Origin: Saprospiraceae bacterium
Lineage (GTDB): Bacteria > Bacteroidota > Bacteroidia > Chitinophagales > Saprospiraceae
Assembly (NCBI GenBank): GCA_013361075.1
Contig: JABWAJ010000001.1
Location: 1 to 37,941, forward strand
DNA length: 37,941 bases
Reading direction: 5' to 3'
In this document: piece by piece, positions 3,637 to 29,898 of the stretch
How positions within the stretch are numbered: the stretch's first letter is position 1
How the letters are laid out: each line of letters begins with the position of its first letter
The notes under the pieces: generated by a model
Databases searched by the model: none
Told to the model about the DNA's origin: nothing
Seen by the model: the letters and a program-made list of their open reading frames with translations, nothing else
Program-made: the position numbers and the translations under genes

Positions 3637-4332
3637 CTAATGTTTCTCCAAAAGCGGTGCAAATGCTTCCCAAACCGGGTCACCCGCAGGAGGAGGCGCA
3701 GTCAGTTCCACGGCCTCGCCCGAAACCGGATGGGTAAAAGCCAGTTTCCAGGCATGCAGGTGAATGGAGCGATCGCGGTTGCCGCGCCGGGCGCCGTATT
3801 TCACATCGCCTTTGATGGGGCACCCGATGGCCGCCAACTGGGCCCTGACCTGGTGGTGCCTGCCTGTGATGAGGTTGATTTCCAGCAAGTGATAGCGGTC
3901 ACTACTGCCCAGCAAGCGGTAGCTGAGTACAGCTTCTTTCAGGTCCGGGTCTTCTGTTGCTTCTGCCGAAGACCGGTTAGCCGTACTTTTTTTACCTACA
4001 AAATGCTTCAGTTCCCCTTCGGGTGCCGGAGGCATTTCCTGCACGACAGCAAGGTAGGTTTTCCGGATCTGGCGGCTGCGGAATTGCTCATTCAGGGCCA
4101 CCAGTGCGTTTTGGGTTTTGGAAAATAAAACCACCCCGCTGGCCGGACGGTCGAGCCGGTGGATAACCTGTAGTTTCGATTGGGTATAGATCGAACCCAG
4201 AGCGAGGAGGGATTTGTCGCCCGTAGTATCATCCTGCACCGGAATCCCGGCAGGTTTATTGAAAGCGACAAGCTGGTTATTTTTATACAAAACCAAATCG
4301 CCGATGCGAAAATCAGGCACAGGGTGCTCCAT
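3637..4332 (-). CDS. RluA-family pseudouridine synthase
   Basis: 231 aa. Catalytic-Asp motif HRLDRPASGVVLFSKT, KTYLAVV, and HHQVRAQLAAIGCPIKGDVKYG, all typical of the RluA/RsuA superfamily. Confidence 0.85.
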   Translation of the reverse strand: MEHPVPDFRIGDLVLYKNNQLVAFNKPAGIPVQDDTTGDKSLLALGSIYTQSKLQVIHRLDRPASGVVLFSKTQNALVALNEQFRSRQIRKTYLAVVQEMPPAPEGELKHFVGKKSTANRSSAEATEDPDLKEAVLSYRLLGSSDRYHLLEINLITGRHHQVRAQLAAIGCPIKGDVKYGARRGNRDRSIHLHAWKLAFTHPVSGEAVELTAPPPAGDPVWEAFAPLLEKH

Positions 4333-4346
4333 TTCAAAGAATTGAG

Positions 4347-4535
4347 TTAGTCTACTTCTTCATAATCCACATATTCACCCCGGCTATCTTTTTTACGATA
4401 GGGCTCATCAACCGGTTTTTTTGGGTCGGGCCCTCTGTTAGAAATGACCGGCGGCGCAATAAAAAAGCGGTAAGCAAAGTAAATAACGGCGATGGTGATG
4501 AGTAGCTTGACCATGGTGAATGAATTTGAAGACAC
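4347..4535 (-). CDS. small membrane protein, DUF4834-like
   Basis: 62 aa with one N-terminal TM helix (VKLLITIAVIYFAYRFFI) and a C-terminal GEYVDYEEVD tail characteristic of the Bacteroidota DUF4834 family. The overlapping 4352..4537 ORF was rejected. Confidence 0.55.
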   Translation of the reverse strand: MSSNSFTMVKLLITIAVIYFAYRFFIAPPVISNRGPDPKKPVDEPYRKKDSRGEYVDYEEVD

Positions 4536-4616
4536 AAAGTTAAGGATAAATTATCACAAGCCTGTTCCGGAATCGGTTTAGCAAAGCCTACGCCGGGGCT
4601 TTTAGGATCATTTTGC

Positions 4617-4624
4617 TACCTTTG
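4617..4624 (+). promoter_or_regulatory. candidate Bacteroidota sigma-A -7 box (TAccTTTG) upstream of the Wzz-like gene
   Basis: Exact match to the TAnnTTTG consensus, 72 nt upstream of ATG 4696. No good -33 TTG. Confidence 0.3.
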
Positions 4625-4695
4625 CCGACCAGATTTGCGTTTTGTGTTTCTGAATCAACCAAAATTCAGCATTGAACGCGGAATAAGCAACATAA

Positions 4696-5799
4696 ATGGA
4701 AAAAAAAGACAACCTGTTGGGCGTACTTCAAACGCTCTTTAAGTGGCGAAAGCCAATTTTTTATACCTGCCTCGCTGCAGGCGTGGGCACGGCCATCATT
4801 TCCCTGCTCCTGCCCACCTATTACAAAGCCACCACCATTTTTCTGGCAGCCAGCCCCGATCAGGCCAAGCCTGAACTTATGTTTGGCGAAGGAGAACTGG
4901 AAGCCGAGTTTTATGGCAATGAAAACGATATTGATCGGATTTTTACCATCGCAGAATCAAGCGAACTGGCAGATTATCTGATTGATACATTTGATCTTTA
5001 TACCCACTACGACATTGATCCCAATGGCGCTAAAGCACCTTATAAGGTACGGGAAGCTTTTTTTGACTTGTACGAAGTGACGAAAACCAAGCGCGACGCC
5101 ATCGAATTGACCATTGAAGACACCGACAAAGTGCTGGCAGCAAAGATAGCCAATGCTGCCCGTGACAGAATTGACGCCATTGTTCAGAAGCTGATGAAAG
5201 AAGCTCATTCCAAAACAATCAATGCGTATAAGTCTTCCATTATACAAAAGCAGCAACAATTGCTGGTCATCAGTGATTCTCTGAATCATTTGCGCAGCGC
5301 CTATGGTGTGTACAACGCCGACGCACAAATCGAAAGCATTATGGCCCAATTGTATGGTACCCAGGCGATGCTGGTACGCGATAAAGGAAAACTGGAAGTA
5401 CTAGAAAAAGCACCCGGCATCCGTCGGGACACCATTACTTTTATGCGGGCAAAGGTAACCGGGATGGAAGCCGAAGTAAAGTCTCTCGAAGAAAAAGTCA
5501 AAAACATCAACGACGGGATGCCCAAAATTTCCATTTGGGAAAAGCAGTATTGGGATGCCAATACAGCTTTGGGGAACAACCGCGTCCGGTTGAAACAATT
5601 TGAAGCAGCTTTTGAATCGGATATCCCGAGCATCATCCTGGTAGAAAAAGCCCACGAACCGTTGATCAAATCGCGCCCCAAACGCTCTCTGATTGTCATC
5701 GCTGCAGTAGTAATCGCGTTTTTCTTCAGCATCGCCGGGGTATTGTTAATTGATGCATACCAGGGCACCAACTGGCGCCAGGTGTTTCATGATCGTTGA
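4696..5799 (+). CDS. Wzz/polysaccharide co-polymerase (chain-length determinant)-like protein
   Basis: 367 aa. N-terminal TM (IFYTCLAAGVGTAIISLLLPTYYKATTIFLA), a long helical periplasmic region, and a C-terminal TM (SLIVIAAVVIAFFFSIAGVLLIDAY). This topology and its position beside an O-antigen-ligase-like gene fit the PCP/Wzz family. Confidence 0.65.
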   Translation: MEKKDNLLGVLQTLFKWRKPIFYTCLAAGVGTAIISLLLPTYYKATTIFLAASPDQAKPELMFGEGELEAEFYGNENDIDRIFTIAESSELADYLIDTFDLYTHYDIDPNGAKAPYKVREAFFDLYEVTKTKRDAIELTIEDTDKVLAAKIANAARDRIDAIVQKLMKEAHSKTINAYKSSIIQKQQQLLVISDSLNHLRSAYGVYNADAQIESIMAQLYGTQAMLVRDKGKLEVLEKAPGIRRDTITFMRAKVTGMEAEVKSLEEKVKNINDGMPKISIWEKQYWDANTALGNNRVRLKQFEAAFESDIPSIILVEKAHEPLIKSRPKRSLIVIAAVVIAFFFSIAGVLLIDAYQGTNWRQVFHDR

Positions 5800-7336
5800 C
5801 CGAATCAAAATATGGATGACTCAGGCACCTGAATACAAGTTGTTTTCAGGTTTCGCGGTGCTTGTTCTGCTTAGCCTTTACGGGGCAGCAGCCACCGGGT
5901 ATTTTGTATTGGCCGGGCTGCCTGTGCTGTTCCTTTTTGCCTGGGTTTGCCTGCTCGATTTCAGTAAAATTTACTACCTGCTTCTTTTTTTTCTGCCCTT
6001 GTCTACCGAAGTTTACCTCCCCGGAGGGTTGGGTACCGATCTGCCAACTGAACCCATTATCGTCGCGCTCATGTTGATTTTTGGTGCTTTTGCATTGCAA
6101 CGCAACTCTGGAGCAGCGATTGAAAAACATTTTTTTACCCACCCCATTGCGCTGCTGCTGCTGGTACACGTCGGGTGGATTTATGCCACGACCATTACCT
6201 CTGAGCTATTTCTGGTATCTCTGAAATTTTCATTGGCCAAAACCTGGTACGTTGCTGTCTTTTTTTTCCTGAGCGGATACCTGATACACACCGAACGCGA
6301 TTACAAAACCCTGTTTTGGGTTGTTTTTATCCCATTGATGTTTACCGTTCTGGTCACCCAGGTTCGGCATGCTGCTTATGGTTTTTCATTTCGGGATATC
6401 CACAAAGTGTTGCACCCTTTCCAGCGCAATCACGTGAATTACGCGGCGATGCTGGCCCTCTTTTTCCCGTTTCTTTTTTTAGCCATAGGTTGGTACCGGC
6501 GTTATTCCCGGATTTGGTGGACGCTCGTGGTGAGTGTGGTTGTCATGCTCGTCGCGATTTATTTTGCCTACACGCGTGCCGCTTATGTGGCACTGTTGTT
6601 TGCAGCGGGCGCTTATGTTGCCATTCGCCTGCGTTTGGTGCGGTACGTACTGGCTGCAGGATTATTGAGCATGATCCTGATCGTTGGATCAATGGTTTAC
6701 AACAACCGCTATCTTGAGTACGCTCCGAATTACGACCGTACGATTACCCATTACAAGTTTGACAACCTGATTGAAGCCACCTATAAAATGGAGGATATTT
6801 CCACCATGGAGCGTGTTTACCGCTGGGTGGCGGGTGCGCACATGAGCGCGAAAAATCCGGTTTTGGGCTTTGGCCCGGGCAATTTTGTCAATTTTTACAA
6901 ACCTTACGCTGTTACAAGTTTTCAGACGTACGTCAGCAACAACAAAGAAAATTCGGGGATCCACAGTTATTTCCTGATGACCCTGGTAGAGCAGGGGTGG
7001 CCGGGCTTGCTGCTTTTTATGGCCCTCTTGTTTTATACGCTTATCAAAGGAGAAAATATTTACCACGAAACCCGCGACCCTGACCGGCGACGGCTCCTGC
7101 TCATGGCCCTCCTTTGCCTCGTCGTCATTGATGCTTTTTTGCTCATCAATGATATGATTGAAACCGATAAAGTTGGTTCTTTCTTTTTTATCTGCCTGGC
7201 CATGCTGATCAATCTGGATCTGGCAAACCGAAGGGAGCGAATAGTTGGCACTCAGCATGATGAACCACAAAAGCCCCTGCCAACTGAATCAGACTGCAAA
7301 CTTATACAAAATGACACCACAGGAAAAAGCGGCTAA
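5789..7336 (+). CDS. O-antigen ligase / Wzy_C family polytopic membrane protein
   Basis: Track ORF 5750..7336; the likely start is ATG 5789 (MIVDRIK), overlapping the upstream stop by 11 nt. At least 10 hydrophobic helices and a YTRAAYVALLFAAGAYVAI type Wzy_C core. The last ~30 codons read through repeat copy 7248-7285, so the true C-terminus is uncertain. Confidence 0.7.
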   Translation: MIVDRIKIWMTQAPEYKLFSGFAVLVLLSLYGAAATGYFVLAGLPVLFLFAWVCLLDFSKIYYLLLFFLPLSTEVYLPGGLGTDLPTEPIIVALMLIFGAFALQRNSGAAIEKHFFTHPIALLLLVHVGWIYATTITSELFLVSLKFSLAKTWYVAVFFFLSGYLIHTERDYKTLFWVVFIPLMFTVLVTQVRHAAYGFSFRDIHKVLHPFQRNHVNYAAMLALFFPFLFLAIGWYRRYSRIWWTLVVSVVVMLVAIYFAYTRAAYVALLFAAGAYVAIRLRLVRYVLAAGLLSMILIVGSMVYNNRYLEYAPNYDRTITHYKFDNLIEATYKMEDISTMERVYRWVAGAHMSAKNPVLGFGPGNFVNFYKPYAVTSFQTYVSNNKENSGIHSYFLMTLVEQGWPGLLLFMALLFYTLIKGENIYHETRDPDRRRLLLMALLCLVVIDAFLLINDMIETDKVGSFFFICLAMLINLDLANRRERIVGTQHDEPQKPLPTESDCKLIQNDTTGKSG

Positions 7337-7730
7337 AATCGCCAAGGATATGTTTGCCAACGATGCATTCAGCCAATGGTTGGGAATCGAACAACTCGAG
7401 CTGGGCATTGGAACCTGCAAACTACGCATGACCGTACGCCCCGAAATGCTCAATGGTTTTGGCATTGCCCATGGCGCCATCACTTACGCCCTGGCTGATA
7501 GTGCCCTGGCGTTTGCCTGTAATTCACAGGGAAGGCACGCCGTTTCTATTGAAACCAGCATCTCTCATACCCAGGCGGTTCAGGCGGGAGACGGCCTCCT
7601 CGCCATTGCAGAAGAAGAACAACTCGGCAATAAGGTAGCCTTTTACCGCGTGCGGGTGCTGGAGGAGCAGTCCGGCCGGGTTGTTGGCTTATTTAAAGGC
7701 ACGGTTTACCGCAGCTCGAGGAACTGGTAG
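7311..7730 (+). CDS. paaI: hydroxyphenylacetyl-CoA thioesterase PaaI (hotdog fold)
   Basis: Track ORF 7245..7730; the likely start is ATG 7311 (MTPQEK...). ...MLNGFGIAHGAITYALADSALAFACNSQG... closely parallels the E. coli PaaI core (MLNGHQSCHGGQLFSLADTAFAYACNSQG). Confidence 0.8.
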   Translation: MTPQEKAAKIAKDMFANDAFSQWLGIEQLELGIGTCKLRMTVRPEMLNGFGIAHGAITYALADSALAFACNSQGRHAVSIETSISHTQAVQAGDGLLAIAEEEQLGNKVAFYRVRVLEEQSGRVVGLFKGTVYRSSRNW

Positions 7731-9064: not shown

Positions 9065-10252
9065 ATGGATCGCGAAGCAACCAACCTTTTTGAAGCGTTT
9101 CCGGAGATTTCCAAAGCGCAGTGGATCGAGCAAATTGGCAAAGACCTCAAAGGGAAACCTTATGCCGATTTGTTATGGCAATTGGAACCCGACCTCGTTA
9201 TGGAACCCTTTTACCATCCCGACGATGGTTTTTCGGCCATGGAGCCGCTTACCGGCGGCAAACATTTCAACGACTGGGAAGTAGGAGAATCCATTGACGT
9301 AACGGATGAAGGCAAAGCCAATACCGAAGCCATTGAAGCTTTGATGGGCGGGGTAAACGCACCGCTTTTTGCTTTGAAAAAACCAGTGGACGATGCCGGG
9401 ATGGATCGCTTGCTGGCACGGATCGAGCCGGAATATGTCTCCCTTCATTTTGGAGAATACCACAGCGATAAAGACCCTGGCCATCTTTTTGAATTGTTGC
9501 AGCAATGGGTTACCCGCCAGGGTAAGGACCCTGTTTTGGTAAAAGCCTCGCTGGATTTTGACCCGTTTTTCGACTGGAGTCAGCCCCCTGTAGCGTTGCT
9601 GGCCGATATGATTCGCTCCTGCGAAGCCGAATGGCCCTCTTTTAAACCCCTACAGGTCAATACCGGCCGGTTTTATGCCGGTACCGAAGCCACAAGCGAC
9701 GAGCTGGCGCTTTCCATAGCGAAAGGCAGCGATTATCTGGCTTTGCTTGGCGCAAAAGGGTTGGCACCGGAACTCGTAAACCGCCACCTGCAATTTGCCG
9801 TAGATATTGGTACCAGTTATTTTGTTCAGATTGCCAAAATCCGGGCGCTTCGCCTGTTGTGGGCCAACGTACTGGCCGGGTATGGGGTTAGTGATGCTCC
9901 GGCTGTGCCAATTATAGCCCATTTTGCTAAAGAATCGCAGGATGAAAATGTGCACACCAATATGATCCGGGCGGCTACCCAGGCCATGTCGGCCATAATT
10001 GGCGGGGCTGATCGGCTGTATGTGCTGCCTGCCGGCGCTTCAATCGGCGACGAAGCTACGCCCTTTCACCGGCGGATCGCGCGCAACGTGCAGCATTTGC
10101 TCCAGTTGGAAAGCCACCTCGGGTACGTGACAGACCCCGCAGCGGGCAGTTACTACATCGAGCGATTGACGACTCTGCTTGCTGAAAAAGCCTGGAGTAA
10201 GTTTCAGGATATTGAGAAAAACGGAGGGTATCTGAGCTTTAAGGGGTTTTGA
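9065..10252 (+). CDS. mutA: methylmalonyl-CoA mutase small (beta) subunit-like protein, apparently C-terminally truncated; no mutB follows
   Basis: 395 aa. ...FPEISKAQWIEQIGKDLKGKPYADLLW...EPFYHPDD..., IAKIRALRLLWANVL, MSAIIGGADRLYVLP, RIARNVQHLLQLESHL, DPAAGSYYIERLT, FQDIEKNGGYL match the MutA family. Family members I recall continue for roughly 60-90 further residues after ...KNGGFL.... Here the frame stops 7 codons later. Confidence 0.7.
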   Translation: MDREATNLFEAFPEISKAQWIEQIGKDLKGKPYADLLWQLEPDLVMEPFYHPDDGFSAMEPLTGGKHFNDWEVGESIDVTDEGKANTEAIEALMGGVNAPLFALKKPVDDAGMDRLLARIEPEYVSLHFGEYHSDKDPGHLFELLQQWVTRQGKDPVLVKASLDFDPFFDWSQPPVALLADMIRSCEAEWPSFKPLQVNTGRFYAGTEATSDELALSIAKGSDYLALLGAKGLAPELVNRHLQFAVDIGTSYFVQIAKIRALRLLWANVLAGYGVSDAPAVPIIAHFAKESQDENVHTNMIRAATQAMSAIIGGADRLYVLPAGASIGDEATPFHRRIARNVQHLLQLESHLGYVTDPAAGSYYIERLTTLLAEKAWSKFQDIEKNGGYLSFKGF

Positions 10253-13551: not shown

Positions 13552-13947
13552 ATGGCAACTGCATTCATCTTTCTGGTTGTGGCTTTGGTCGCAATCGGGC
13601 TGGTAACAACAGTGGAGGGAAATGCAAAGCGCCGGTCTGAATACTATGAGGAAAGAAACAAAGAAGTTATTCCGTTTGATAAACGCAATTTGTTGCCTCG
13701 TGGCTACCAAGGCCGGGTTTTGGCTATGCCTGCCCACACTCAAGGAGTTTACGACGACGCGTATGCTGCCGCATACACCCAAGACAGAAGAAACAGGAAG
13801 TCAAATAGATCTGGCAACCAAAGACTTACAGCAACATTGCTGTTTTCAATGCTCATTATCATCACTCTGGCTTATGCTGCCATGCGCAAAAAAGAGCACA
13901 CAGCATCGAGCCCATTCAACAAGGCGGAGCTTTACCTTAAATATTGA
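13552..13947 (+). CDS. hypothetical small membrane protein (2 predicted TM helices)
   Basis: 131 aa. N-terminal TM AFIFLVVALVAIGLVTTV, a charged middle, and a second TM LTATLLFSMLIIITLAYAAM. Followed by a good terminator. Preferred over the overlapping 13622..13963 ORF. No family recognised. Confidence 0.45.
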   Translation: MATAFIFLVVALVAIGLVTTVEGNAKRRSEYYEERNKEVIPFDKRNLLPRGYQGRVLAMPAHTQGVYDDAYAAAYTQDRRNRKSNRSGNQRLTATLLFSMLIIITLAYAAMRKKEHTASSPFNKAELYLKY

Positions 13948-13964
13948 AATCTCATGTACTTAGG

Positions 13965-14001
13965 GAGGTCTGCGGTCTTTGTACCGCAGGCCTTTCATTT
14001 T
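13965..14001 (+). terminator. rho-independent terminator-like hairpin after the 131-aa gene
   Basis: GGTCTGCGGT (13967-13976) pairs with ACCGCAGGCC (13983-13992): 10 bp with one G-U, 6-nt loop. Followed by TTTCATTTT. Confidence 0.55.
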
Positions 14002-14282
14002 GAACATGCTTTACACCGCCCCTGAGGAAGTTTATACTGAGATTGGCATATTTTTTGAGGCTTTTGTGGAACGAATATACGACTGTTACACGTAGAGAAA
14101 CCACTCCTCCTTTGCTTCAGTTTTGCGTTAAGCATTTCAGCAAATTAAAAAAAAACAGACCACCAAAAGGCGGGCCCCTCCCGCGCCTTGCGGTAAGTTA
14201 CCGACGATACTATCGAAACCGACGTTGGAGCAACACACAAAAGGTATGAGCGAACATACACACTTTTTTGAAAAAAAAATGA

Positions 14283-15653
14283 GTGGCCATGACAGCATCC
14301 AAGTATGTTTCAAGGCATCTCCCGCAAATTCCTAAGAAGGGGAAAAAAGAGATTCCTGCCTATCGGCTTCGTTTGGAAACGTACCTCAAAAACGAACTTA
14401 CGAAGCTCAAAAAACTGCACGTTGGGTCGCCCGACGATGCCCATACCTTTTTATTGCTGGACCGCAAGATCGCAGATAAACCTGTACGGGCCTTTTTTGC
14501 AGGTGAAATATTCGCGTTTATCCGGCGATCTGCCCAACAGGAAGGTCTGTTGCTGCATACGGAAGACTCCCATCTCTTCAGGCAGGTGATTCCTTTCGTA
14601 ACCGAAGTTGTCATTTCCATCCAGTATTTTCACAACCAGATACTGGACAGCAAAGCGGGGGTTACTTGCCGCAATAAAAAACAAATAGATCAAAACCTGC
14701 TTTCAGCTAACCTCCTCAAAGAATACCTCTACGAATACATCGAACAGGAAACTGCGCCGGAACACGCGGGGATCATCACCCGGTACGTACGTCGCATTTT
14801 TAAATATGTGGACGTCGGTCAGCAAACCGAAAAAAAATGGAATACTTACGAAAGCTTCGAACAGGGTTCTTACAAAAACAGGCAATTTCATCCGGAAATT
14901 GAAGCTTTTGCAAACCCGGAACGGGTGGCTCCCCTGCTGGAAACCCTGCGCAGGTTCTACCCCGAGCGCGGCGACTATGCAGATGCTTACCTGCAGCGCA
15001 TTGCACTCACTTCGGCAGCTTTGTTCGTACTTAATGCCGAAATGATCCTGGAATTGAGCGGATATACAGGCAACGCCCGGCAACCCATACTGGAGTTTGC
15101 CTGGTTTTATGGCATGATGCAACAAGTCATCAACGACAATGCCGATGTGGTGCCTTCCCGGTTCAACCACGAAACAACTGAAAAAACTGCCAGTGACGCC
15201 TTCAGCGATGCCCGCAACCACAATGTAACGCTGCCTTTGTTCCTGCATCTGGAAAACATGCGCCATGTACCGGAAAACTATGAACCTGACCTGGTTAAAT
15301 CCATCCTGCAACGCCCTTTCCATGTAACGCTGACCAACCGCGAAGAAGAACGGATGTTTCTGGAATTGAGGACTTCCGGTGCCCTTTACCTGTCGATTGA
15401 TATTGGCAAATATTTCGCAGCCATGGCGCAAAATTGTTTAACCGATGCTGCTTTGTCCGATTGTCAAAGCCTCTTGTCGCTGTGCGAAGTAGCAGACTGG
15501 AACCGATACATTTACGACTGTTACAACAAAAAGGATCCGCACAACAAACGACTGCGCAAACGCTATAAAGACAGCCCGCTTTACGCGGCCATGTCCGCAC
15601 TGACCGGGCATGCCAAATCAGCAGCCGTGCAGCATCAAATGGTCAATCCTTGA
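14283..15653 (+). CDS. trans-isoprenyl diphosphate (polyprenyl) synthase-fold protein with degenerate Asp-rich motifs; function unknown
   Basis: 456 aa (GTG 14283, or more likely ATG 14289). It is collinear with polyprenyl synthase landmarks. DKPVRAFFAGEIFAFI matches GKRxRPxL. EVVISIQYFHNQILDSK matches vELIHtaSLiHDDlxD. VGQQTE matches GQxxD. YLQRIALTSAALF matches YxxxIxxKTAxLf. FAWFYGMMQQVINDNADV matches fGxxlGxaFQIxDDxlD. KTASDAFSDARNHNVTLPLFL matches GKxxgxDlxxgKxTxPxl. FARM is H-N-Q-I-L-D (14631-14648) and SARM is N-D-N-A-D (15132-15146). Confidence 0.6.
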   Translation: MAMTASKYVSRHLPQIPKKGKKEIPAYRLRLETYLKNELTKLKKLHVGSPDDAHTFLLLDRKIADKPVRAFFAGEIFAFIRRSAQQEGLLLHTEDSHLFRQVIPFVTEVVISIQYFHNQILDSKAGVTCRNKKQIDQNLLSANLLKEYLYEYIEQETAPEHAGIITRYVRRIFKYVDVGQQTEKKWNTYESFEQGSYKNRQFHPEIEAFANPERVAPLLETLRRFYPERGDYADAYLQRIALTSAALFVLNAEMILELSGYTGNARQPILEFAWFYGMMQQVINDNADVVPSRFNHETTEKTASDAFSDARNHNVTLPLFLHLENMRHVPENYEPDLVKSILQRPFHVTLTNREEERMFLELRTSGALYLSIDIGKYFAAMAQNCLTDAALSDCQSLLSLCEVADWNRYIYDCYNKKDPHNKRLRKRYKDSPLYAAMSALTGHAKSAAVQHQMVNP

Positions 15654-15759
15654 TGCGAAGGATTGCTTGGGAAGCAGAAAACCTTGCCCCAAAAACCCTA
15701 AAGAACAGGGCGCAACAAAATGCTTGCTTGCCGCAATGAATTTCCTTGAGCACAACCGT

Positions 15760-15788
15760 TTGCAATCCAGCCAATTTCGCTAATTTTG
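15760..15788 (+). promoter_or_regulatory. candidate Bacteroidota sigma-A promoter (-33 TTG / -7 TAatTTTG) for the 1138-aa gene
   Basis: TTG at 15760-15762, an 18-nt spacer, then TAATTTTG at 15781-15788 (consensus TTG-N17-23-TAnnTTTG), 51 nt upstream of ATG 15839. Confidence 0.45.
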
Positions 15789-15838
15789 AGCACGGCAACA
15801 CGCCGGTAGCATTGGGAAACACAAAAAAATAGCGGATC

Positions 15839-18800
15839 ATGCCGGAAATTAAACTCAGGGAAATTGTATCCTTTGCGAACCAGGAGGAATTTCATGACCT
15901 GTTACTTGACCGCCTGCACGGGGCCATCCACCGGGTGCTCGACATTGATGAAGGCGACTACACCATGTTCATGGTAACGATTCCAAGGGGGCAGGACGTA
16001 GAAATCAACCCCTATTTGCAACAGGAACAGCTCATCTATGGGGGCGTGGACGCCCAGCGGCGACTGCTCGAAGCCGGCGTTGTCCTCAAAAACACGGCAG
16101 CCAGCTGGGATTACCTCAAATACGAAGAGTTCTACACCGAAGAGACTTACCTGACCCGCAATACATTCAATGAATTGGAAGCGGGGCAATATTCCATTGA
16201 AGACATTCCCGTGAAGTTTTCCGGCGACTTGTACGATTATTTTGCCGACCAGCGGGCTTCCCCGCCCGAAAACCCTCAGGCACCTGCCAACCTGAAAGAA
16301 GCGGAATACTGGATTCTGCGCGAACACTTTGATTTTAAGACGCGTTTGTCGGATAAATTCCTGTCGCTACCCCTGATTCAGTACCTCGAATTCGACGGGG
16401 TATTGCACTTTATTTACAAAAGAAAACATTCCAGAAAAGTCTTCCCGCAAGGGCTGAAAGACATTTCTGTGGTAAAAAAGCTGATCCGGGAATTCAACAA
16501 CCTCTACGACGAAATTATCCTCGATTGGGACATTGAATCCGGCAACTTCCAGAAGCGCGAAATTGTGGATAACATCCTGCTGTACAGCAATGACCCCGCC
16601 TTTCAGGAACGCAAAAACAGAAACCCGATCCTCCGCGAATTGCGCTACCTCGAATACTACCAGAACCACTTCCACTACTACAAACGCCGCGTAGAATATG
16701 GCCGGCAGGTGCCCGCTCTTTTCTATGAGCGCTATCTGCTGCAGGCCATCGTTCACATCCTCATTGACTCGTATGCACATAACGTGAGCGCGCATAGCTT
16801 AGTGGCACTCAATTGGTATTTCCAGTTGCGCTCCGAATATTACGGTCACGATGTGCACCAGCGCGATGCCATCTGGAGCGCCTACAAGTCGAAGTTATTG
16901 TCGGCAGTAGATACTGGTACTGGCTGGCGGCGCGATATGGCTGACTGGATCGAAGACCAGATTTTTGAAAACAGGGTAAGTGATGATGAGAACCTGCACG
17001 ATGTGGTGAGCCAACACCCGCTGGTACAGTACTCAGGGCGGTTGGACAAAGAAATCCATGTGTTGCTGAAGTTTATGCTCGAAAAGGGCGCTTTCTGGAG
17101 TGGGGTTACCCGTGACATCCATTTCGGCGGCAAAATCATTGGCCTGTACAGCCTGCTTTGGAACGATTTCATCAACAATCCACTCTACCTCGGCACCATT
17201 GCCCGCTCAGAAGGCATCGAACGCATCAACCTGAAAATTACCATTTTTGCCCCGGAAGGCCCAACTTCCTACACGCATGGCGCTTACCGCAATCCGAAGC
17301 ACGTTCAGGTGGAAGGCATTCTGGCCACGGTGGATCTGCGCCGCATCCGCAGCAAAGACGCTTCGGTAAACGGCAACGGAGAAGCAGAATACCTGACCAT
17401 GCCCGATGGAGAAAAATTGTTTTACGAAGACCACCCTTCGCTGAAAAACCGGAGCGTTTTTGTAGAACCGGGCCCCAACTACACCGCATTGAAAAAAGCG
17501 CTCAAAGCAGTGCGCATCTTTTTCCCGGGCGACCTCGTCGGCAAACACGCTTTCCTCACCATCCTGGAAAATGAGATTCGAAACGTCAAGCATTACAAGG
17601 GAGAGGCTTTGCGCCAAATGCACACAGAAGGACTGACGCTGAATATTTCTATTCAGGAAGCTTCGGTAAAGCCAGGTGCCCCAATCCATGAATTGTACAA
17701 AACCGGCATCTGGCTGGAAGCACCAACCGCGTTGAAAAAAGGACGCGACAGCGAAATGCCGCCCCTGATTACCCGAAAATTCAATGCCCTGCGCGGTGAT
17801 GTCATGAACTCAACGGAAGGTGAATTTTTGCCGCGACTCGGGGGCAACTACCAGGATAAAATCTGCGCCGCCATGTTGTTCAACAACCGGTTTGCCAGTG
17901 TGCAAAAAGGAGATACGGGTACCAGCCGAAGCAAAAATGAAGATACTGACCGCGACCGCGCGTATTACCCGTGGCTTATTCCGGCCAGTTGCCCGTTGCC
18001 TGACTACAGCGGCGTACACGACGATATGGAATTGAGCCTGCGGGAAGCGCGCAGAATTTACGGGTATTTCGACCGCCGCAAAGCTGCGGAAATCGAACCT
18101 ATGGCCAAAGCTTACCTTGAGGCATTTGAAGAAGCATATACCCAGGAAGTCGGCTACATCAAAAAATACTTTTACGTCTGGAAAGGAGAAAACCTTCACC
18201 GGCACCGGGAAACAACCGACCTGACCTGGGAAAACATCGGACGTTTTCGCTTTGTCTGCGTACCCGACAAATCGCCTAAAGCATTTGAAAGCGTTCGGCG
18301 GCAAGGTGTGGTCCGTATTCTGGAATCGAACGAAATCCGCCCGGAAGACAGCCTTACCCAAACCTACCACCGCTGGCTAAAAAAGTGGCTGGGCACTGAA
18401 AAACAGGTATTGCTGCTTCAAAAAGACAACAACATTGACGATGGTATGTTTGTCTTTAATCCATCCCCGGCAGAGGTGCTGCACTACTACAACATGCAGG
18501 AAACCATGGAATACCTGCAGGGCAACGGCCAGCCGGTGAAAACGACCCACCTGCGCTATGCCCACCGCGTGGATTCCGACACCGACCAGGAACGCATCAG
18601 CTACCGCAGCAATGGCATCCTGAAAACGTATTTTGTAGACCCCGCCTACCGCGCCGAAAAGGGGATTTCGCTGGGGCATATCCCCGCTGAACGCCAGGCA
18701 GAATTGTTCGAAACGCTGACGACCAAAGTATGCATGTTCGACAACCGCATCTGGCACCGCATCAAAGACCTGGGCCGTACCGATATTTACCGCGACATGA

Positions 18801-19255
18801 TGCACTTAGTTGTGCACAAAGAAGAAACACCGGGGCAGGCCGGCATGGAAGGCTTCCAGAACCTCTGGGAATACGAAAAGCAACACGCCATCAAGGAATG
18901 CCATTTTCTGGTGCTGCACCTGTCTTACATCGAACGTATCCTGGAAGAAAAATACGCTGGCCACCCCGCTTACACCGAAGGCGGCAACATTCAGCTTTTC
19001 CTTGAGCAGGAACTGCTGCCGGTGCTCACCGATCCGGAAACGGGCAAAATCCGCGACAATTTCATCCTCGTCATCACCACAGGCCGCGGCCGCATCAGCT
19101 GGTGGAAAGAAATTGAGCAGAAATACCCGCACTATACGTCGTTCATCATGTTCCGGACAGTGGAATCGCTGATTTCGAGTATTGAAAATGCAGTGGGGAT
19201 GAAGGATGATATTGAGTTGAAGTTTCGGTTGGTGAAGGTGTTGTTTGGGGCGTAG
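15839..19255 (+). CDS. 1138-aa uncharacterised protein with histidine-kinase/GHKL ATPase-like boxes and a receiver-like (pseudo-receiver) C-terminal domain
   Basis: Long uninterrupted ORF with native-looking codon usage. N-box-like ILENEIRNVKHY (aa 575-586, nt 17561-17596). F-box-like ITRKFNALRGD. G2-like RLGGNYQDKICAAML (aa 666-680, nt 17834-17878). Possible H-box DSYAHNVSAHSL (aa 310-321, nt 16766-16801). C-terminal alpha/beta pattern KVCMFDN (aa 963-969), FLVLHLS (His1027), ILVITTGRGR (aa 1076-1085). No Walker A and no recognisable nuclease motifs. Confidence 0.55.
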   Translation: MPEIKLREIVSFANQEEFHDLLLDRLHGAIHRVLDIDEGDYTMFMVTIPRGQDVEINPYLQQEQLIYGGVDAQRRLLEAGVVLKNTAASWDYLKYEEFYTEETYLTRNTFNELEAGQYSIEDIPVKFSGDLYDYFADQRASPPENPQAPANLKEAEYWILREHFDFKTRLSDKFLSLPLIQYLEFDGVLHFIYKRKHSRKVFPQGLKDISVVKKLIREFNNLYDEIILDWDIESGNFQKREIVDNILLYSNDPAFQERKNRNPILRELRYLEYYQNHFHYYKRRVEYGRQVPALFYERYLLQAIVHILIDSYAHNVSAHSLVALNWYFQLRSEYYGHDVHQRDAIWSAYKSKLLSAVDTGTGWRRDMADWIEDQIFENRVSDDENLHDVVSQHPLVQYSGRLDKEIHVLLKFMLEKGAFWSGVTRDIHFGGKIIGLYSLLWNDFINNPLYLGTIARSEGIERINLKITIFAPEGPTSYTHGAYRNPKHVQVEGILATVDLRRIRSKDASVNGNGEAEYLTMPDGEKLFYEDHPSLKNRSVFVEPGPNYTALKKALKAVRIFFPGDLVGKHAFLTILENEIRNVKHYKGEALRQMHTEGLTLNISIQEASVKPGAPIHELYKTGIWLEAPTALKKGRDSEMPPLITRKFNALRGDVMNSTEGEFLPRLGGNYQDKICAAMLFNNRFASVQKGDTGTSRSKNEDTDRDRAYYPWLIPASCPLPDYSGVHDDMELSLREARRIYGYFDRRKAAEIEPMAKAYLEAFEEAYTQEVGYIKKYFYVWKGENLHRHRETTDLTWENIGRFRFVCVPDKSPKAFESVRRQGVVRILESNEIRPEDSLTQTYHRWLKKWLGTEKQVLLLQKDNNIDDGMFVFNPSPAEVLHYYNMQETMEYLQGNGQPVKTTHLRYAHRVDSDTDQERISYRSNGILKTYFVDPAYRAEKGISLGHIPAERQAELFETLTTKVCMFDNRIWHRIKDLGRTDIYRDMMHLVVHKEETPGQAGMEGFQNLWEYEKQHAIKECHFLVLHLSYIERILEEKYAGHPAYTEGGNIQLFLEQELLPVLTDPETGKIRDNFILVITTGRGRISWWKEIEQKYPHYTSFIMFRTVESLISSIENAVGMKDDIELKFRLVKVLFGA

Positions 19256-21770: not shown

Positions 21771-22688
21771 ATGGGTAAAAAGAAAAATGGAAAAACAGAA
21801 TTTGTAAAGTGGTTTGGACCTGTTCTTGATGCATTGAGAGACTTAGGAGGTTCAGCTAAGCCGAGGGAAATTACTCAACGAATAGGTCTTCATTTAAATA
21901 TCCCAGATGAAATTTTGAATGAGCGGTATGAGAAATCAGGAGTTCTAAAATTTCAAAACCAAGTGGCCTGGGCAAGACAATATTTAGTTTGGGAGGAATT
22001 ACTTGAATCTTCAAAGCATGGTATTTGGACATTAACAAATAAAGGCTGGCAGACCAACCTTAGTGAAAACCAGGCACATGAAATTTTTATAAAATGGGTG
22101 AAAATTTTTCAAGAATTAAGAGAAAAAAAGAATATTGGGAGTGTTGAAACGGAAGCCCAAAAAATTATTCAGACACAAGAACAAACAGAACCTGAAAATA
22201 CACAGGTAAGTATTAGACCTACTTTAATTGACGTTTTACAGACAGTATCAGCAACAGGCTTTGAATATTTATGTGGTAGGCTTTTGAGAGAGTATGATTT
22301 TGAGAATGTTGAAATAACACAGCGCTCACATGACGGAGGGATTGATGGATATGCAACACTTAAAATAAATCCATTTGTAAGTCTTAGCGTTTTTTTTCAA
22401 TGTAAACGTTATAAAGGAACAGTTCCGACAGAAAAAGTTCAAGCTTTTATTGGTGTTATGGAGACGAATAAACGAAGCGTTGAAAAAGGGCTTTTGATAA
22501 CTACAGGCACATTTGCGAAAGCTGCTTATGAAATAGAAAAGTCGAACATAAAATTGGAACTAATTGATGGAGAAAAGCTTGTTGAAATGTTCGAAAAAGT
22601 TGAACTCGGCGTGAATCCCAAAGTAATTTATGAACCAGATTTAACCTTTTTTGAACAATACCGAGATAAATCAAAGAAAGAGGGCTAA
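21771..22688 (+). CDS. mrr: Mrr-type restriction endonuclease (Mrr_N winged-helix + Mrr_cat PD-(D/E)xK domain)
   Basis: 305 aa. N-terminal FVKWFGPVLDALRDLGGSAKPREITQRIG...FQNQVAWARQYLVWEELLESSKHGIWTLTNKG (Mrr_N). C-terminal FEYLCGRLLREYDFENVEITQRSHDGGIDGYA...FFQCKRYKGTVPTEKVQAFIG...GLLITTGTFAKAA (D...D-x-x-QCK core). Markedly lower GC than its neighbours. Confidence 0.85.
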   Translation: MGKKKNGKTEFVKWFGPVLDALRDLGGSAKPREITQRIGLHLNIPDEILNERYEKSGVLKFQNQVAWARQYLVWEELLESSKHGIWTLTNKGWQTNLSENQAHEIFIKWVKIFQELREKKNIGSVETEAQKIIQTQEQTEPENTQVSIRPTLIDVLQTVSATGFEYLCGRLLREYDFENVEITQRSHDGGIDGYATLKINPFVSLSVFFQCKRYKGTVPTEKVQAFIGVMETNKRSVEKGLLITTGTFAKAAYEIEKSNIKLELIDGEKLVEMFEKVELGVNPKVIYEPDLTFFEQYRDKSKKEG

Positions 22689-22697
22689 GATTTGGAG

Positions 22698-23183
22698 TTA
22701 TTCTCCTGCCAAAAGAAGCACCTCCTTTCTCAAAGCCTCACTCATCCAAAACCCTGCAAGTTTTTCAAGGTCGGTAAGAATGGAAGCAATTTCAGGAATC
22801 AATCCTTCTGATTTCGTTTTTAACAAAACTCCAAGCACCCCAATTGTCTTGAGTCCCATAGAATTCGCGATTTTCCAACCACGCCGTTCGTCAATGAGAA
22901 TAAAGTCGGCTTTCATTTCCATTGCCAACACGATGGCTTCACTTTCTCCCGGATCCAGTTGTTGAGATAACTCAGATACGGCAATTATATCTTCAGCAGA
23001 TTTTACTGTTATCCAAGCCTGATTGTTAATTGGTGAAATATCATAACCAAATTCGGCGAGTTTCGATAGTTCGTTAAGAACAGCGCCTGGCAAAATAATG
23101 TTACCAAAGAGTTTTTGCAGCAAATCTAATTTGCCAATAACGAACAAACTGGAAACGGGGGAAGCATCACTTACAACAACCAT
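22698..23183 (-). CDS. DUF3368 (PIN-like) toxin component of a type II TA pair
   Basis: 161 aa. VVSDASPVSSLFVIGKLDLLQKLFGNIILPGAV..EL, LDPGESEAIVLAMEMKADFILIDERRGWKIANSMGLKTIGVLGVLLKTKSEGLI match the DUF3368 consensus. Starts immediately after the antitoxin stop. Confidence 0.8.
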   Translation of the reverse strand: MVVVSDASPVSSLFVIGKLDLLQKLFGNIILPGAVLNELSKLAEFGYDISPINNQAWITVKSAEDIIAVSELSQQLDPGESEAIVLAMEMKADFILIDERRGWKIANSMGLKTIGVLGVLLKTKSEGLIPEIASILTDLEKLAGFWMSEALRKEVLLLAGE

Positions 23184-23423
23184 CTATGAAGCAAGATTTA
23201 AATGCTTAACATCCTCTCGCAGCTCCTCCACTCCATAATGAACAGCAATCTTCCGTTTGCCAAGCTCTTTTTGAAAAATCAATTGCGGAACCCCGGCCAA
23301 AGCAGCGGCTTGTCCGAGTGTCAATACCTCTTCTTTGAATAAGGCAATGGCAATCAGCATTTTGATTTCCTGCTCTGTCGTTTGTGCTTTCAGCAGGGTA
23401 GAATCATCGAGTTCAATTGTCAT
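23184..23423 (-). CDS. UPF0175 family antitoxin
   Basis: 79 aa. ...IKMLIAIALFKEEVLTLGQAAALAGVPQLIFQKELGKRKIAVHYGVEEL..D is typical of UPF0175. It lies upstream of, and is translationally abutted to, the PIN-like gene. Confidence 0.8.
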   Translation of the reverse strand: MTIELDDSTLLKAQTTEQEIKMLIAIALFKEEVLTLGQAAALAGVPQLIFQKELGKRKIAVHYGVEELREDVKHLNLAS

Positions 23424-28870: not shown

Positions 28871-29063
28871 GAGACCCAGTACTCATAATCTTCCGATTGA
28901 GCCGGCAGGGAAAAGCAGACAAAGGAAAAAAGGAAAAAAAAGAGGGCCTTCATAATGTCGGGTATTTACGCAGATAAAGTCTTCACAAATTAAGTTTTTT
29001 TGCAAAAAAAAACCGAACTTTATTCGTGCCAAAGGGCGCATATTGTCGCCTTTTGAACAGATT

Positions 29064-29477
29064 ATGAAACGGCTTTTAACGATTGTTGCCGCCGTGCTTT
29101 TGCTCTTCAACGGGATTGGTGCCTTGTATGGTGGCTGGAGTTTAATGACATACCCCGACGGAAGTAATTTGCAACTACCTTTAGCCTGGCTGGAACACAC
29201 TCCATTTTCTGATTTTTTAATCCCCGGAATTGTCCTTTTTATTGCCAATGGTTTGTGCAGTATTTTTGTTTTTTCGGCGCTTTTATTTTCCTACAACAAA
29301 ACTGCTTTGCTGGTAATGGCCCAGGGCATCATCCTGATGGGGTGGATTGTTGTGCAGGTTTTACTGGTGCAGAAATATCATCCGCTTCAGTTACTTCTGG
29401 GAATTGTTGGTTTTTTGCTTTTTGTGACGGGGTGGGCGATGCGTAGAATCAATCAGAATAAGGAGGAGGGAAAATAA
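29064..29477 (+). CDS. hypothetical 4-TM membrane protein
   Basis: Track ORF 29043..29477 (TTG); ATG 29064 (MKRLLTIVAAVLLLF...). Four hydrophobic helices. No family recognised. Confidence 0.5.
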   Translation: MKRLLTIVAAVLLLFNGIGALYGGWSLMTYPDGSNLQLPLAWLEHTPFSDFLIPGIVLFIANGLCSIFVFSALLFSYNKTALLVMAQGIILMGWIVVQVLLVQKYHPLQLLLGIVGFLLFVTGWAMRRINQNKEEGK

Positions 29478-29898
29478 TTCACTGATGTTGTTCAAAGAGG
29501 CAAATAGCAAAGTTGAATTTTGTTTCGGGGCGTTCAGCGGTTTTTGGGGTTAAAGGCTTGTTCGGAAATCCATCAATTGACTTTGCTGAATCTTCAATTT
29601 GACTACAGCTGGCCAGCAGGCATTCGTTTGAAAAATATTTCAAATGTATTATTGTATTTAACAACAATTAATTGAGTTATTTTATTTATTATTTTTAAAT
29701 TTTATTTAAAAAAATTTTGGGAATAAATATTTTTGAACCTACTTTTGAGAATTCCTATCAACGAATCAGCAAAACTGTCCTGGTTTGAGGTGATTTCGTT
29801 TCAATATTTTTTTAAACACTCAACAAACACAATTTCATATAAACAAGCACTCGGCAAACACACCAAAGCCGATTTTTTCATTTAAACCATGCTTTCAT

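Follow-up and report, generated by a model that had tools for sequence, protein, structure and literature searches.

Two adjacent genes in the genome of a Saprospiraceae bacterium raise the question whether a protein resembling an isoprenyl-diphosphate synthase (IDS) and a very large kinase-like protein act together, and for what purpose. The genes are located on contig JABWAJ010000001.1 of assembly GCA_013361075.1, within its first 37,941 nucleotides; this whole stretch of DNA was analyzed and is referred to as the window. Three open reading frames (ORFs) on the + strand, which the initial annotation had grouped into one block, were present: 13552-13947 (gene 1, 131 aa), 14283-15653 (gene 2, 456 aa when read from GTG), and 15839-19255 (gene 3, 1138 aa). 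Genes 2 and 3 are a genuine pair, conserved and hitherto undescribed. We lean toward the reading that they constitute the sensor and transducer half of an undescribed family of two-component-like signaling operons widespread among the Saprospiraceae, and that the window carries an orphan copy.

Genes 2 and 3 form a conserved pair

Gene neighborhoods were surveyed with a profile-guided scan that covered a single genome of each GTDB species and yielded 78 loci (numbered with the prefix L), nearly all from Saprospiraceae/Lewinellaceae and including Lewinella cohaerens DSM 23179 and Flavilitoribacter nigricans DSM 23189. ORFs were called crudely and then clustered, and the loci represent phylogenetically related metagenome-assembled genomes (MAGs). 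Partial matches to gene 3, extending from about residue 290 to the end, were found in Ignavibacteriaceae, Melioribacteraceae, Bacteroidales, a MAG of the Eubacteriales, and a MAG of the Promethearchaeota.

The initial annotation had tied the proposal of a joint system to synteny in other genomes. Homologues of the two genes were syntenic: of the 69 gene 3 genes for which 2 kb or more of upstream sequence was available, 58 had a gene 2 homologue directly upstream on the same strand. Overlapping ORFs, or ORFs only a few bases apart, were seen in several loci. Pairwise identities of gene 2 and gene 3 homologues were correlated (58 pairs; r = 0.84, falling to 0.69 when close pairs were excluded). 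Furthermore, paralogous pairs within one genome were equally old, the gene 3 paralogues sharing 33-36% identity and the gene 2 paralogues 21-28%. Adjacency by chance was rejected because of the 58 adjacent loci and this co-divergence. The N-terminal domain of gene 3 was missing from distant homologues that lack gene 2, and its presence tracked that of gene 2 (57/64 vs 1/5, Fisher p = 0.002), an association confounded by phylogeny.

Several variants of the arrangement were recorded. Spacers of 570-690 nt separated genes 2 and 3 in L010, L017, L034, L042, and L063, as compared to overlapping stop and start codons elsewhere; Rfam found nothing in the spacers of L010 and L017, and small ORFs were called in that of L034. 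Tandem duplicates of the IDS-fold gene preceded a single gene 3 in L029, L031, L037, L039, L057, L064, and L078, two copies of gene 3 were present on L048 and L064, and at least six MAGs contained two separate loci. In two Lewinellaceae loci without an IDS-fold gene (L023:8098-9759 and L036:8097-9760), a POT-family transporter and a 553-aa protein were encoded upstream of gene 3; the latter gave no family match and was split into pieces in L036.

Gene 2 encodes an IDS-fold protein with altered but constrained motifs

Translation of gene 2 probably starts at ATG 14289 and not at the listed GTG 14283, because entry P0121 comprises 454 aa and homologues begin with MTAS; residue numbers given here refer to the 456-aa form. 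Pfam polyprenyl_synt (PF00348) matched residues 233-325 below threshold (E 1e-4, 22.1 bits vs a cut-off of 27). The NCBIfam match to HepT was weak (TIGR02748, 24.8 vs 456), and a profile match to HepT reached E 1.6e-9 over the C-terminal half only. A structural model was calculated with AlphaFold2 from 15 sequences and had a predicted local distance difference test score (pLDDT) of 84.5 and a predicted template modeling score (pTM) of 0.87. Foldseek searches with this model against the PDB gave 193 matches at E ≤ 1e-3, and all 50 matches listed were trans-IDS or annotated isoprenoid/polyprenyl synthases, among them Rv0562, IspB, HepPPS, and solanesyl-diphosphate synthase (E down to 2e-7, target template modeling (TM) score up to 0.75). 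Judged by the model, gene 2 thus has the all-alpha trans-IDS fold, and the trans-polyprenyl synthase scaffold recognized in the initial annotation is borne out.

An exhaustive profile search of 1.84 billion cluster representatives identified 237 representatives of the gene 2 family at E ≤ 1e-30. This exhaustive search was needed; a word-indexed search for homologues, repeated with the gene 2 alignment, yielded no extra members. Longer relatives of 526-693 aa were scanned for fusions, and the IDS domain alone was recognized. Motif statistics were obtained for 193 family members, namely 65 from related loci and 128 representatives. The canonical DDxxD motif was found in none of them. N118, D122, N284, and D285 were invariant in all 193 members, K124 and D288 were each conserved in 192, and residue 119 was Q in 157 members and H in 22.

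N118-Q119-x-x-D122 presumably equals the first Asp-rich motif (FARM) of IDS proteins, as suggested by the pattern E108..H117-N-Q-x-x-D and by helix 96-121 of the model; the canonical FARM pattern is E..H-D-D-x-x-D. In the second Asp-rich motif (SARM), N284-D285-x-x-D288 aligned to the sequences 'IIDDILD'/'LIDDLLD' of HepT, the S. aureus synthase, and IspB; the underlying profile-to-sequence and profile-to-profile alignments span the C-terminal half only. The position of the 'KT' lysine is occupied by L242-T243. Residues R69, K124, K301, D305, D309, and T316-L-P318 are retained.

The initial annotation had described gene 2 as catalytically degenerate. The DDxxD motifs are indeed altered, but the term is misleading: the replacement motifs are nearly invariant throughout the family, and a simple dead enzyme with a decayed site was therefore rejected. 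The pocket is constrained, since the variant motifs are nearly invariant and the residues listed above are retained. Judged from the aligned sequences, the active site of gene 2 is rewired and under strong constraint.

Near-invariant motifs would also be expected of a working active site. Hence, a small-molecule pathway was considered in which gene 2 would act as a prenyltransferase or terpene synthase of a non-canonical kind, gene 3 would serve as a tailoring or scaffolding enzyme that depends on ATP, and the receiver and sigma-54 genes described below would merely be regulators. NDxxD resembles the metal-binding motifs of other prenyl enzymes, and in distant lineages radical S-adenosylmethionine (SAM) enzymes and Liv-type transporters occupy the slot upstream of gene 3. 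IDS-fold proteins have repeatedly become terpene synthases (PMC7484799). However, two of the three acidic FARM residues and the 'KT' lysine are replaced, the best structural matches of gene 3 are kinases and sensor domains and not enzymes of secondary metabolism, and the conserved partners are all signaling proteins. Cyclases, P450s, transferases, or exporters were not conserved around the pair. For this lack of pathway genes, the biosynthetic function is the weakest of the three hypotheses raised in the initial annotation, and we regard it as improbable.

Gene 3 defines a family of large soluble proteins

Gene 3 had no match in Pfam, NCBIfam, or PADLOC. Its family comprises at least 315 homologous clusters at 90% identity, as counted in a search limited to 8,000 candidates, and no Pfam domain was present on any of 120 listed members. 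All clusters bearing a source name are called 'hypothetical protein'; they are named from Saprospiraceae, Lewinella, Phaeodactylibacter, and unclassified Bacteroidota. The protein does not contain a hydrophobic segment and is thus soluble, in agreement with its earlier description as a large cytoplasmic protein.

An alignment of 91 sequences contained 65 invariant columns. Among these are D310-S-x-A-H314-N-x-x-x-H319, K416-G-A-x-W-x-G, N447..Y450, and E577..R581-N582-x-K584-H585, furthermore L667-G-G-x-x-Q-D-K, D968, H1027, G1082-R-G, and R1106. H314, N582, and H1027, which had been singled out for mutagenesis, are therefore invariant in all 91 homologues; their specific roles are unproven. 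A homologue of 1297 aa with intact core motifs was found on contig JAFGOA010000069.1 of a Promethearchaeota MAG (L075, positions 3737-7630), flanked by genes for a LivK-like binding protein, a KamA-like radical-SAM protein, and a B12-radical-SAM-like protein. Its presence on a contig binned as Asgard could be due to horizontal transfer or to a binning error.

The AlphaFold2 model of gene 3, calculated from 91 sequences, had a pLDDT of 84.2 and a pTM of 0.78 and was divided into five regions (Table 1). The N-terminal domain gave weak matches to GAF and IclR ligand-binding domains (E 0.4-1). The long helix of the second region carries the invariant H314 and H319, and H314 is a candidate phospho-acceptor. 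In the central region, the motifs KGAFWSG, NNPLYLG, E577-x-x-x-R-N582-x-K-H585, and L-G-G-x-x-Q-D-K (667-674) are invariant. Mapping by eye assigned E-x-x-x-R-N-x-K-H (577-585) as N-box-like and L667-G-G as Gly-rich, and this region is tentatively regarded as a GHKL-like ATP-binding core. For residues 746-960, matches to two-lobed Rossmann-like proteins were listed (ornithine and aspartate transcarbamoylases and the periplasmic-binding-protein/LacI type; about 350-400 columns, E 0.1-1).

In the C-terminal region of the predicted model, DSSP assigned five strands alternating with helices. The positions of a receiver site, as located by eye, are occupied by D968/N969, by H1027 in place of the acceptor Asp, by T1080, and by R1106 in place of Lys. 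The five receiver active-site residues DD, D, T, and K are thus not all present, H1027 and R1106 being invariant replacements. The definition of a pseudo-receiver requires computational recognition as a receiver (PMC12632262), which the C-terminus of gene 3 fails. Its likeness to receivers is weak and lies at the level of predicted topology only.

Foldseek comparison of the whole model with the PDB gave no match at E < 1e-3; the top match was WalK (E 0.018), and HK853 and the ATP-binding domain of DesK were listed at E 0.3-1.1. The list also contained a dual-sensor kinase, a phytochrome, GAF and IclR ligand-binding domains, a topoisomerase II ATPase, and two-lobed Rossmann proteins. In BFVD, a histidine kinase of a Marseillevirus ranked first (E 8e-7, prob 0.99, over 1160 alignment columns), ahead of hybrid kinases of EsV-1 and FirrV. 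A hybrid-kinase-like architecture is the best structural description of gene 3 and is only weakly confirmed by the model. The histidine kinase/GHKL-type core and the receiver-like C-terminus of the initial annotation were thus recovered, weakly, by Foldseek and topology, but not by Pfam or hhalign (≤0.4). Sensitive searches placed neither gene 2 nor gene 3 in a well-characterized family whose catalytic residues are intact.

In many relatives, further signaling genes follow gene 3

In relatives outside the window's own clade, the complete operon has the order gene 2 type, gene 3 type, a 300-aa protein without known relatives, a 255-aa adaptor, a sigma-54 activator, and sometimes a receiver-leucine-rich repeat (LRR) protein. 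Of 63 loci, 56 encoded the ~300-aa protein after gene 3, and 55 contained two or more receiver-family genes there. The ~255-aa protein is a putative pseudo-receiver adaptor: its N-terminus is receiver-like (hhalign probability 74-83%), and an FFxGHG motif is conserved. Searches with PDB profiles of the 300-aa and 255-aa partners returned coiled-coil noise only. The next gene encodes a sigma-54 activator of the NtrC type that combines a receiver with an AAA+ domain (Sigma54_activat, E 1.7e-58; Response_reg, E 7.7e-17). Its receiver is intact and contained a hydrophobic stretch plus Asp in 20 of 20 cases.

A large protein of 560-1100 aa belonging to the receiver cluster followed in 23 loci (24 genes, as one locus contained two), with the receiver consensus LLVDDY / ILLDYLLG. 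Ten of these proteins were scanned (L021, L025, L027, L028, L033, L037, L045, L052, L072, and L078; for example, L045:14415-17714 and L037:16686-19316). Nine carried LRRs and one had no Pfam match; of the nine, eight additionally carried EAD11, TIR, caspase, or TIR plus caspase, and one consisted of LRRs only. The effector module of the receiver-LRR proteins swaps between loci, and the caspase was recognized by the NCBIfam model 'caspase, EACC1-associated type'. No EAD11, TIR, or caspase module was found in the terminal genes of L021 and L072.

The corresponding protein of an Ignavibacteriaceae locus (L068:16446-22581) contained the Pfam domains HD-CE and TCAD9 (APH-kinase-like); its N-terminal receiver and the following ORFs, which are cytidine-deaminase-like, HAD 5'-nucleotidase-like, and vWA-like, were judged by eye. 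A conserved 179-aa protein without a match in Pfam or NCBIfam was encoded after the NtrC-like gene in L018 (16506-17042) and also in L016, L017, L034, L041, and L053. It may be a further member of the operon.

Among 1,160 ORFs in 79 loci, a single canonical HisKA/HATPase_c kinase was detected, 8.4 kb away from gene 3. Since no canonical kinase is conserved nearby, gene 3 is the only conserved candidate for a phosphodonor of the operon's receivers. Two or three receiver proteins with an acceptor-like Asp motif are encoded per operon, a circumstantial hint at phosphotransfer.

The terminal genes raise the alternative that the family might primarily be a conflict system, that is, a Detocs-like anti-phage or programmed-cell-death system to which the window pair would add an extra sensor. 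This explanation overlaps with a signaling function and differs from it in the stated purpose. It is favored by the LRR-bearing receiver proteins with their swapping EAD11, TIR, caspase, or TIR plus caspase modules, by the HD-CE and TCAD9 domains of the Ignavibacteriaceae counterpart, by the EACC1-associated type of the caspase, and by the occurrence of several paralogous operons per genome. Two studies defined such domain families in conflict systems of bacteria that are multicellular or filamentous, a filamentous Bacteroidetes among them (PMC7159879, PMC8195603). Detocs demonstrates that two-component wiring can serve defense (bioRxiv 10.1101/2023.01.24.525353). In the window itself, an Mrr gene and a toxin-antitoxin pair are located 2.5 kb downstream of gene 3; however, the genes for FocA, GNAT, and DUF1361 lie in between.

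Other observations speak against conflict as the primary purpose. The large receiver gene was present in 23 loci only and effectors in eight of the ten proteins scanned; neither was present in the window or its closest clade. PADLOC gave no match for gene 2, for gene 3 and its homologues, or for the two partners without known relatives, and only the NtrC-like AAA+ domain matched the RtcR/PspF models. Homologues of gene 3 on plasmids and phages were not found. Many related loci adjoin lpxD-lpxC/fabZ-lpxA, that is, lipid A genes (identified by eye), with conserved synteny, and the evolution of gene 3 is slow and apparently vertical, which sets it apart from typical defense genes. The accessory context that the initial annotation assumed, and a defense-island setting, are not supported for the window by these results. 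We consider a primarily conflict-related function rather unlikely, while the TIR, caspase, and EAD11 modules provide support for such a role at the level of the family. A signaling function, the first of the three hypotheses raised at the outset, is best supported.

The window carries an old orphan copy of the pair

Homologues of all four downstream gene types are missing from the window and likewise from five close relatives. The closest loci, with identities of 85-91%, belong to Saprospiraceae and 'Chitinophagales' MAGs. Two genomes contained both forms: in CALEYL01, a window-type pair (L003) was accompanied by a full operon on another contig (L027), and in JBJXFD01, the pair L005 was accompanied by the full operon L026, also on another contig. 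The pairing proposed by the initial annotation is real and undescribed, but the window holds a stripped-down copy, and the existence of a full operon elsewhere had not been foreseen.

All four downstream partners are gone, and the gene content 3' of gene 3 varies even among relatives with 85-91% identity. Both facts could indicate that the window copy is a decaying remnant, without function of its own, of a full operon from which the downstream genes were deleted. However, both ORFs are intact in the window and in five close relatives with enough sequence. As compared to L003, gene 3 showed 392 synonymous and 121 non-synonymous codon changes, and gene 2 showed 157 synonymous and 104 non-synonymous changes. 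Moreover, all 65 family-invariant columns of gene 3 are kept, and the pair is only about 40% identical to the closest full-operon copies, which indicates that it is old. The window pair is thus under purifying selection. Since the selection data show constraint, a relic without function is contradicted, and we regard it as very improbable. Rather, because of the low identity to full-operon copies together with purifying selection, the pair is an old orphan paralogue and not a recent truncation. It probably signals in trans, and the target would be either a full operon at a different site of the genome or some other regulator.

Gene 1 and other features of the window

Gene 1 was named a component of the system by the initial annotation, as a small protein with two transmembrane segments. 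Its hydropathy peaks are located at residues 1-20 and about 93-111, and it had no match in Pfam, NCBIfam, or PADLOC. In the locus census, homologues were found only in the window's own clade (L001-L003). Comparison with L003 revealed 42 non-synonymous and 20 synonymous codon changes; gene 1 evolves fast, and its constraint is far weaker than that of genes 2 and 3. At the boundary between genes 1 and 2, an intrinsic-terminator-like hairpin is predicted (dG -24.3 kcal/mol, z = -6.1, with none of 200 shuffles equally stable). Since gene 1 is clade-restricted and cut off by this terminator, it was rejected as a component: it is probably a neighbor of the module in a separate transcription unit. 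Of the three-gene block originally proposed, genes 2 and 3 stand as the conserved pair, but not gene 1.

The promoter postulated in the 185-nt spacer between genes 2 and 3 was present as a Bacteroidetes-type motif. It is one of four matches in the window, as compared to 1.2 expected; the consensus used is that of Bacteroidetes sigma-A promoters, and the assignment is a consensus match only. Gene 3 may hence be transcribed from its own promoter. Rfam detected tRNAs only in the window and in four loci with long gene 2-gene 3 spacers. A sequence downstream of gene 3 that had been taken for REP-like elements occurs in one copy and is not unusually structured; it was dismissed as a repeat element.

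Pfam confirmed the adjacent Y_Y_Y/LuxR regulator (Y_Y_Y/Reg_prop/LuxR) as the upstream neighbor of the pair and identified a FocA/NirC transporter as the downstream neighbor of gene 3. The Mrr gene and toxin-antitoxin genes noted earlier were also present: positions 21771-23423 encode a full-length Mrr (Mrr_N + Mrr_cat) and a toxin-antitoxin-like DUF3368/UPF0175 pair, in a low-GC kilobase (GC 0.368 in 22001-23000). This stretch looks like a small horizontally acquired insert. The same DUF3368/UPF0175 pair family was present, in a different arrangement, in the relatives L001 and L004. A second low-GC stretch (0.382) is located at 29001-30000. Additionally, an ORF of the methylmalonyl-CoA mutase family (9065-10252, 395 aa) spans only positions 43-399 of the 512-position Pfam model; a 396-aa form of it is also present in the relatives L002 and L003.

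Table 1. Location of genes 1-3, their predicted domains and motifs, and nearby sequence elements in the window (RNA, DNA, and protein features by position)
Feature	Position	Strand	Basis
Gene 1, 131-aa protein with two hydrophobic segments	13552..13947	+	ORF call, hydropathy
Intrinsic-terminator-like hairpin, 14-bp stem followed by UUUCAUUUU (U-tract)	13963..13996	+	RNA fold
Gene 2, predicted IDS-fold (class I terpenoid-synthase fold) protein, non-canonical motifs	14289..15653	+	start call, Pfam, AlphaFold2, Foldseek
Putative FARM equivalent N118-Q119-I-L-D122 (456-aa numbering), where DDxxD is expected	14634..14648	+	conservation, helix position
SARM equivalent N284-D285-N-A-D288, where DDxxD is expected	15132..15146	+	alignment
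Bacteroidetes-type promoter motif TTTG-N18-TAATTTTG in the gene 2-gene 3 spacer	15759..15788	+	consensus match
Gene 3, 1138-aa soluble protein, hybrid-histidine-kinase-like predicted architecture	15839..19255	+	ORF, library scans, AlphaFold2, Foldseek
Gene 3 residues 1-235, alpha/beta domain at the N-terminus with weak structural matches to GAF	15839..16543	+	DSSP, Foldseek
Gene 3 residues 236-425, helical region with 82-residue helix 278-359	16544..17113	+	DSSP, invariant columns
Gene 3 residues 426-745, central alpha/beta region, candidate ATP-binding (GHKL-like) core	17114..18073	+	invariant columns, Foldseek
Gene 3 residues 746-960, alpha/beta domain	18074..18718	+	DSSP
Gene 3 residues 961-1138, C-terminal (beta-alpha)5 receiver-like topology	18719..19255	+	DSSP of predicted model, conservation

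Proposed function of the pair

The following mechanism would account for a signaling function of genes 2 and 3. The IDS-fold protein would keep a diphosphate-binding pocket and would have lost the canonical metal triads; it would bind, or synthesize in a non-canonical manner, a small phosphorylated ligand and report this ligand to the N-terminal domain of gene 3. Gene 3 may consist of a GAF-like N-terminal domain, a long helix that bears His, a core resembling GHKL proteins, and a pair of alpha/beta domains, the last of which would be receiver-like and Asp-less. It would act as a non-canonical kinase or phosphodonor, with H314 as the candidate residue, for the receiver proteins of the operon.

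Several results weigh against this proposal. Gene 3 gave nothing at E ≤ 10 in a PDB sequence profile search, and Pfam found no consistent match in a set of 38 sequences comprising the window gene 3, 30 homologues, and 7 distant homologues. Comparison by hhalign of residues 270-745 or 540-745 with seven canonical kinases (PhoR, EnvZ, NtrB, PhoQ, CpxA, BaeS, and one Saprospiraceae kinase; a 7-sequence template and no secondary structure were used) gave probabilities of 0.2-0.4. Residues 950-1138, compared with six E. coli receivers and the NtrC-like receivers of the operon, gave 0.1-0.4. Thus, none of the sequence methods applied (Pfam, PDB profile, hhalign) linked gene 3 to kinase or receiver domains. 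Inspection of gene 3 for a conserved Asp of the G1-box type, which contacts adenine, revealed no clear one; for this reason, ATP binding stays a candidate role. Foldseek TM-scores of gene 3 were low (0.1-0.3), since whole multidomain models were compared. Sigma-54-type -24/-12 promoters were searched for upstream of all operon genes, and no enrichment in or near the operons was observed.

The census also contains adverse points. Its counts are not independent, because related MAGs and crude ORF calls were used, and 11 of the 69 gene 3 loci lacked an upstream gene 2. In distant lineages belonging to other phyla, the slot upstream of gene 3 contained Liv-type ATP-binding cassette (ABC) transporter genes and radical-SAM enzymes of the BATS, KamA-like, and B12-dependent types; in one Ignavibacteriaceae locus, a weakly methyltransferase-like protein replaced the radical-SAM enzyme beside the Liv-type transporter genes. 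As other genes fill the slot of gene 2, the input gene is exchangeable, the core is not.

A further-reaching proposal can be put forward tentatively, as a possibility that we hold to be less probable than a signaling role as such. The full operons might represent a new class of immune or cell-fate two-component-like systems of filamentous Bacteroidota, in which an IDS-fold pseudoenzyme receptor, or non-canonical synthase, for a diphosphate ligand would be combined with a diverged giant kinase, a pseudo-receiver relay, and outputs via sigma-54 and via receiver-LRR-TIR/caspase/EAD11 proteins; orphan pairs such as that of the window would widen the range of signals that reach a single output module.

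If the signaling proposal is true, a family of signaling proteins of about 1000-1200 residues has been missed wholly by current domain libraries, and gene 2 would be a first case in which an IDS fold was recruited to provide the input to a kinase-like transducer. In filamentous Bacteroidota, effectors of the TIR, caspase, and EAD types would then be tied to two-component wiring and to transcription by sigma-54, which is relevant to the question of how sensing leads to decisions on cell fate or immunity in multicellular bacteria. Direct testing is feasible, because L. cohaerens DSM 23179 and F. nigricans DSM 23189 are cultured carriers of the full operon. For the window, the appropriate annotation is a conserved pair of unknown function, and neither a polyprenyl synthase next to a hypothetical protein nor a defense system.

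Comparison with known systems

A prior description of the operon was sought in Pfam (2025), NCBIfam (June 2026), PADLOC (2023), PDB sequences, and the literature; general frameworks only were found. The nearest precedents for gene 2 are non-catalytic IDS small subunits and IDS-like terpene synthases, neither of which is paired with a signaling protein. The small subunits (plant geranyl diphosphate synthase small subunit, HexA, HepS) likewise have an IDS fold without canonical DDxxD and are thought to act via a partner (PMC7839719). However, a catalytic large subunit is not encoded near gene 2, and its partner is a kinase-like giant. Moreover, the gene 2 motifs are replaced near-invariantly and not merely absent, and diphosphate-binding residues on the SARM side are kept. 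IDS-derived terpene synthases typically keep functional Asp-rich metal-binding motifs, whereas the FARM of gene 2 reads NQxxD and its partners are signaling genes and not genes of a terpenoid pathway. Those of fungi and insects share with gene 2 an IDS fold with a new function and a sequence too divergent for routine annotation (PMC7484799).

The terminal genes found in part of the family, with LRR and EAD11, TIR, or caspase modules, recall the conflict systems of multicellular bacteria described by Kaur, Burroughs, Iyer, and Aravind; filamentous Bacteroidota as hosts and several paralogues per genome are further points in common (PMC7159879, PMC8195603). The cores of those systems differ, being STAND, MoxR-vWA, or GTPase modules. 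The terms polyprenyl, sigma-54, and EAD11 are absent from the main text of the 2020 Kaur paper, and sigma occurs in the 2021 paper in ECF-sigma contexts only; none of the passages retrieved from PMC7159879 and PMC8195603 describes an operon of the present kind.

With regard to wiring, full operons resemble Detocs, in which the kinase DtcA, the buffer receiver DtcB, and the receiver-effector DtcC correspond to a kinase-like sensor, an effector-less receiver, and a receiver with a swappable effector (bioRxiv 10.1101/2023.01.24.525353). However, PADLOC gave no match here, though the presence of Detocs models in PADLOC 2.0.0 is unverified. The Detocs sensor is a TPR-HisKA-HATPase_c kinase, which gene 3 is not, and its effector is PNP as compared to LRR-TIR/caspase/EAD11. 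The present operons additionally encode a sigma-54 activator, an IDS-fold protein, and the 300-aa protein; the receiver-effector fusion occurs in only part of the family, and the window copy is devoid of any receiver or effector.

Hybrid histidine kinases and NtrB-NtrC phosphorelays share with gene 3, as modeled, a large soluble protein with a sensor-like N-terminal domain, a His-bearing helix, an alpha/beta core, and a receiver-like C-terminus. As in NtrB-NtrC-type systems, gene 3 is encoded together with a receiver-AAA+ sigma-54 activator and further receivers. Differences are also evident: neither Pfam nor hhalign detects HisKA/HATPase_c in gene 3, and its candidate His is about 268 residues away from the N-box-like Asn, whereas about 110 residues lie between the phospho-acceptor His and the N-box Asn in canonical kinases. 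A clear G1-box Asp is lacking, a His occupies the acceptor position of the C-terminus, and two obligatory partners without known relatives are present. Taken together, we consider the operon to be a real, undescribed two-component-like system with a biochemistry that we infer, and the window to contain its sensor half only. It would work like a hybrid-kinase phosphorelay or Detocs. At the level of motifs and profiles, it fails the tests for HisKA/HATPase_c, PF00072, and PF00348.

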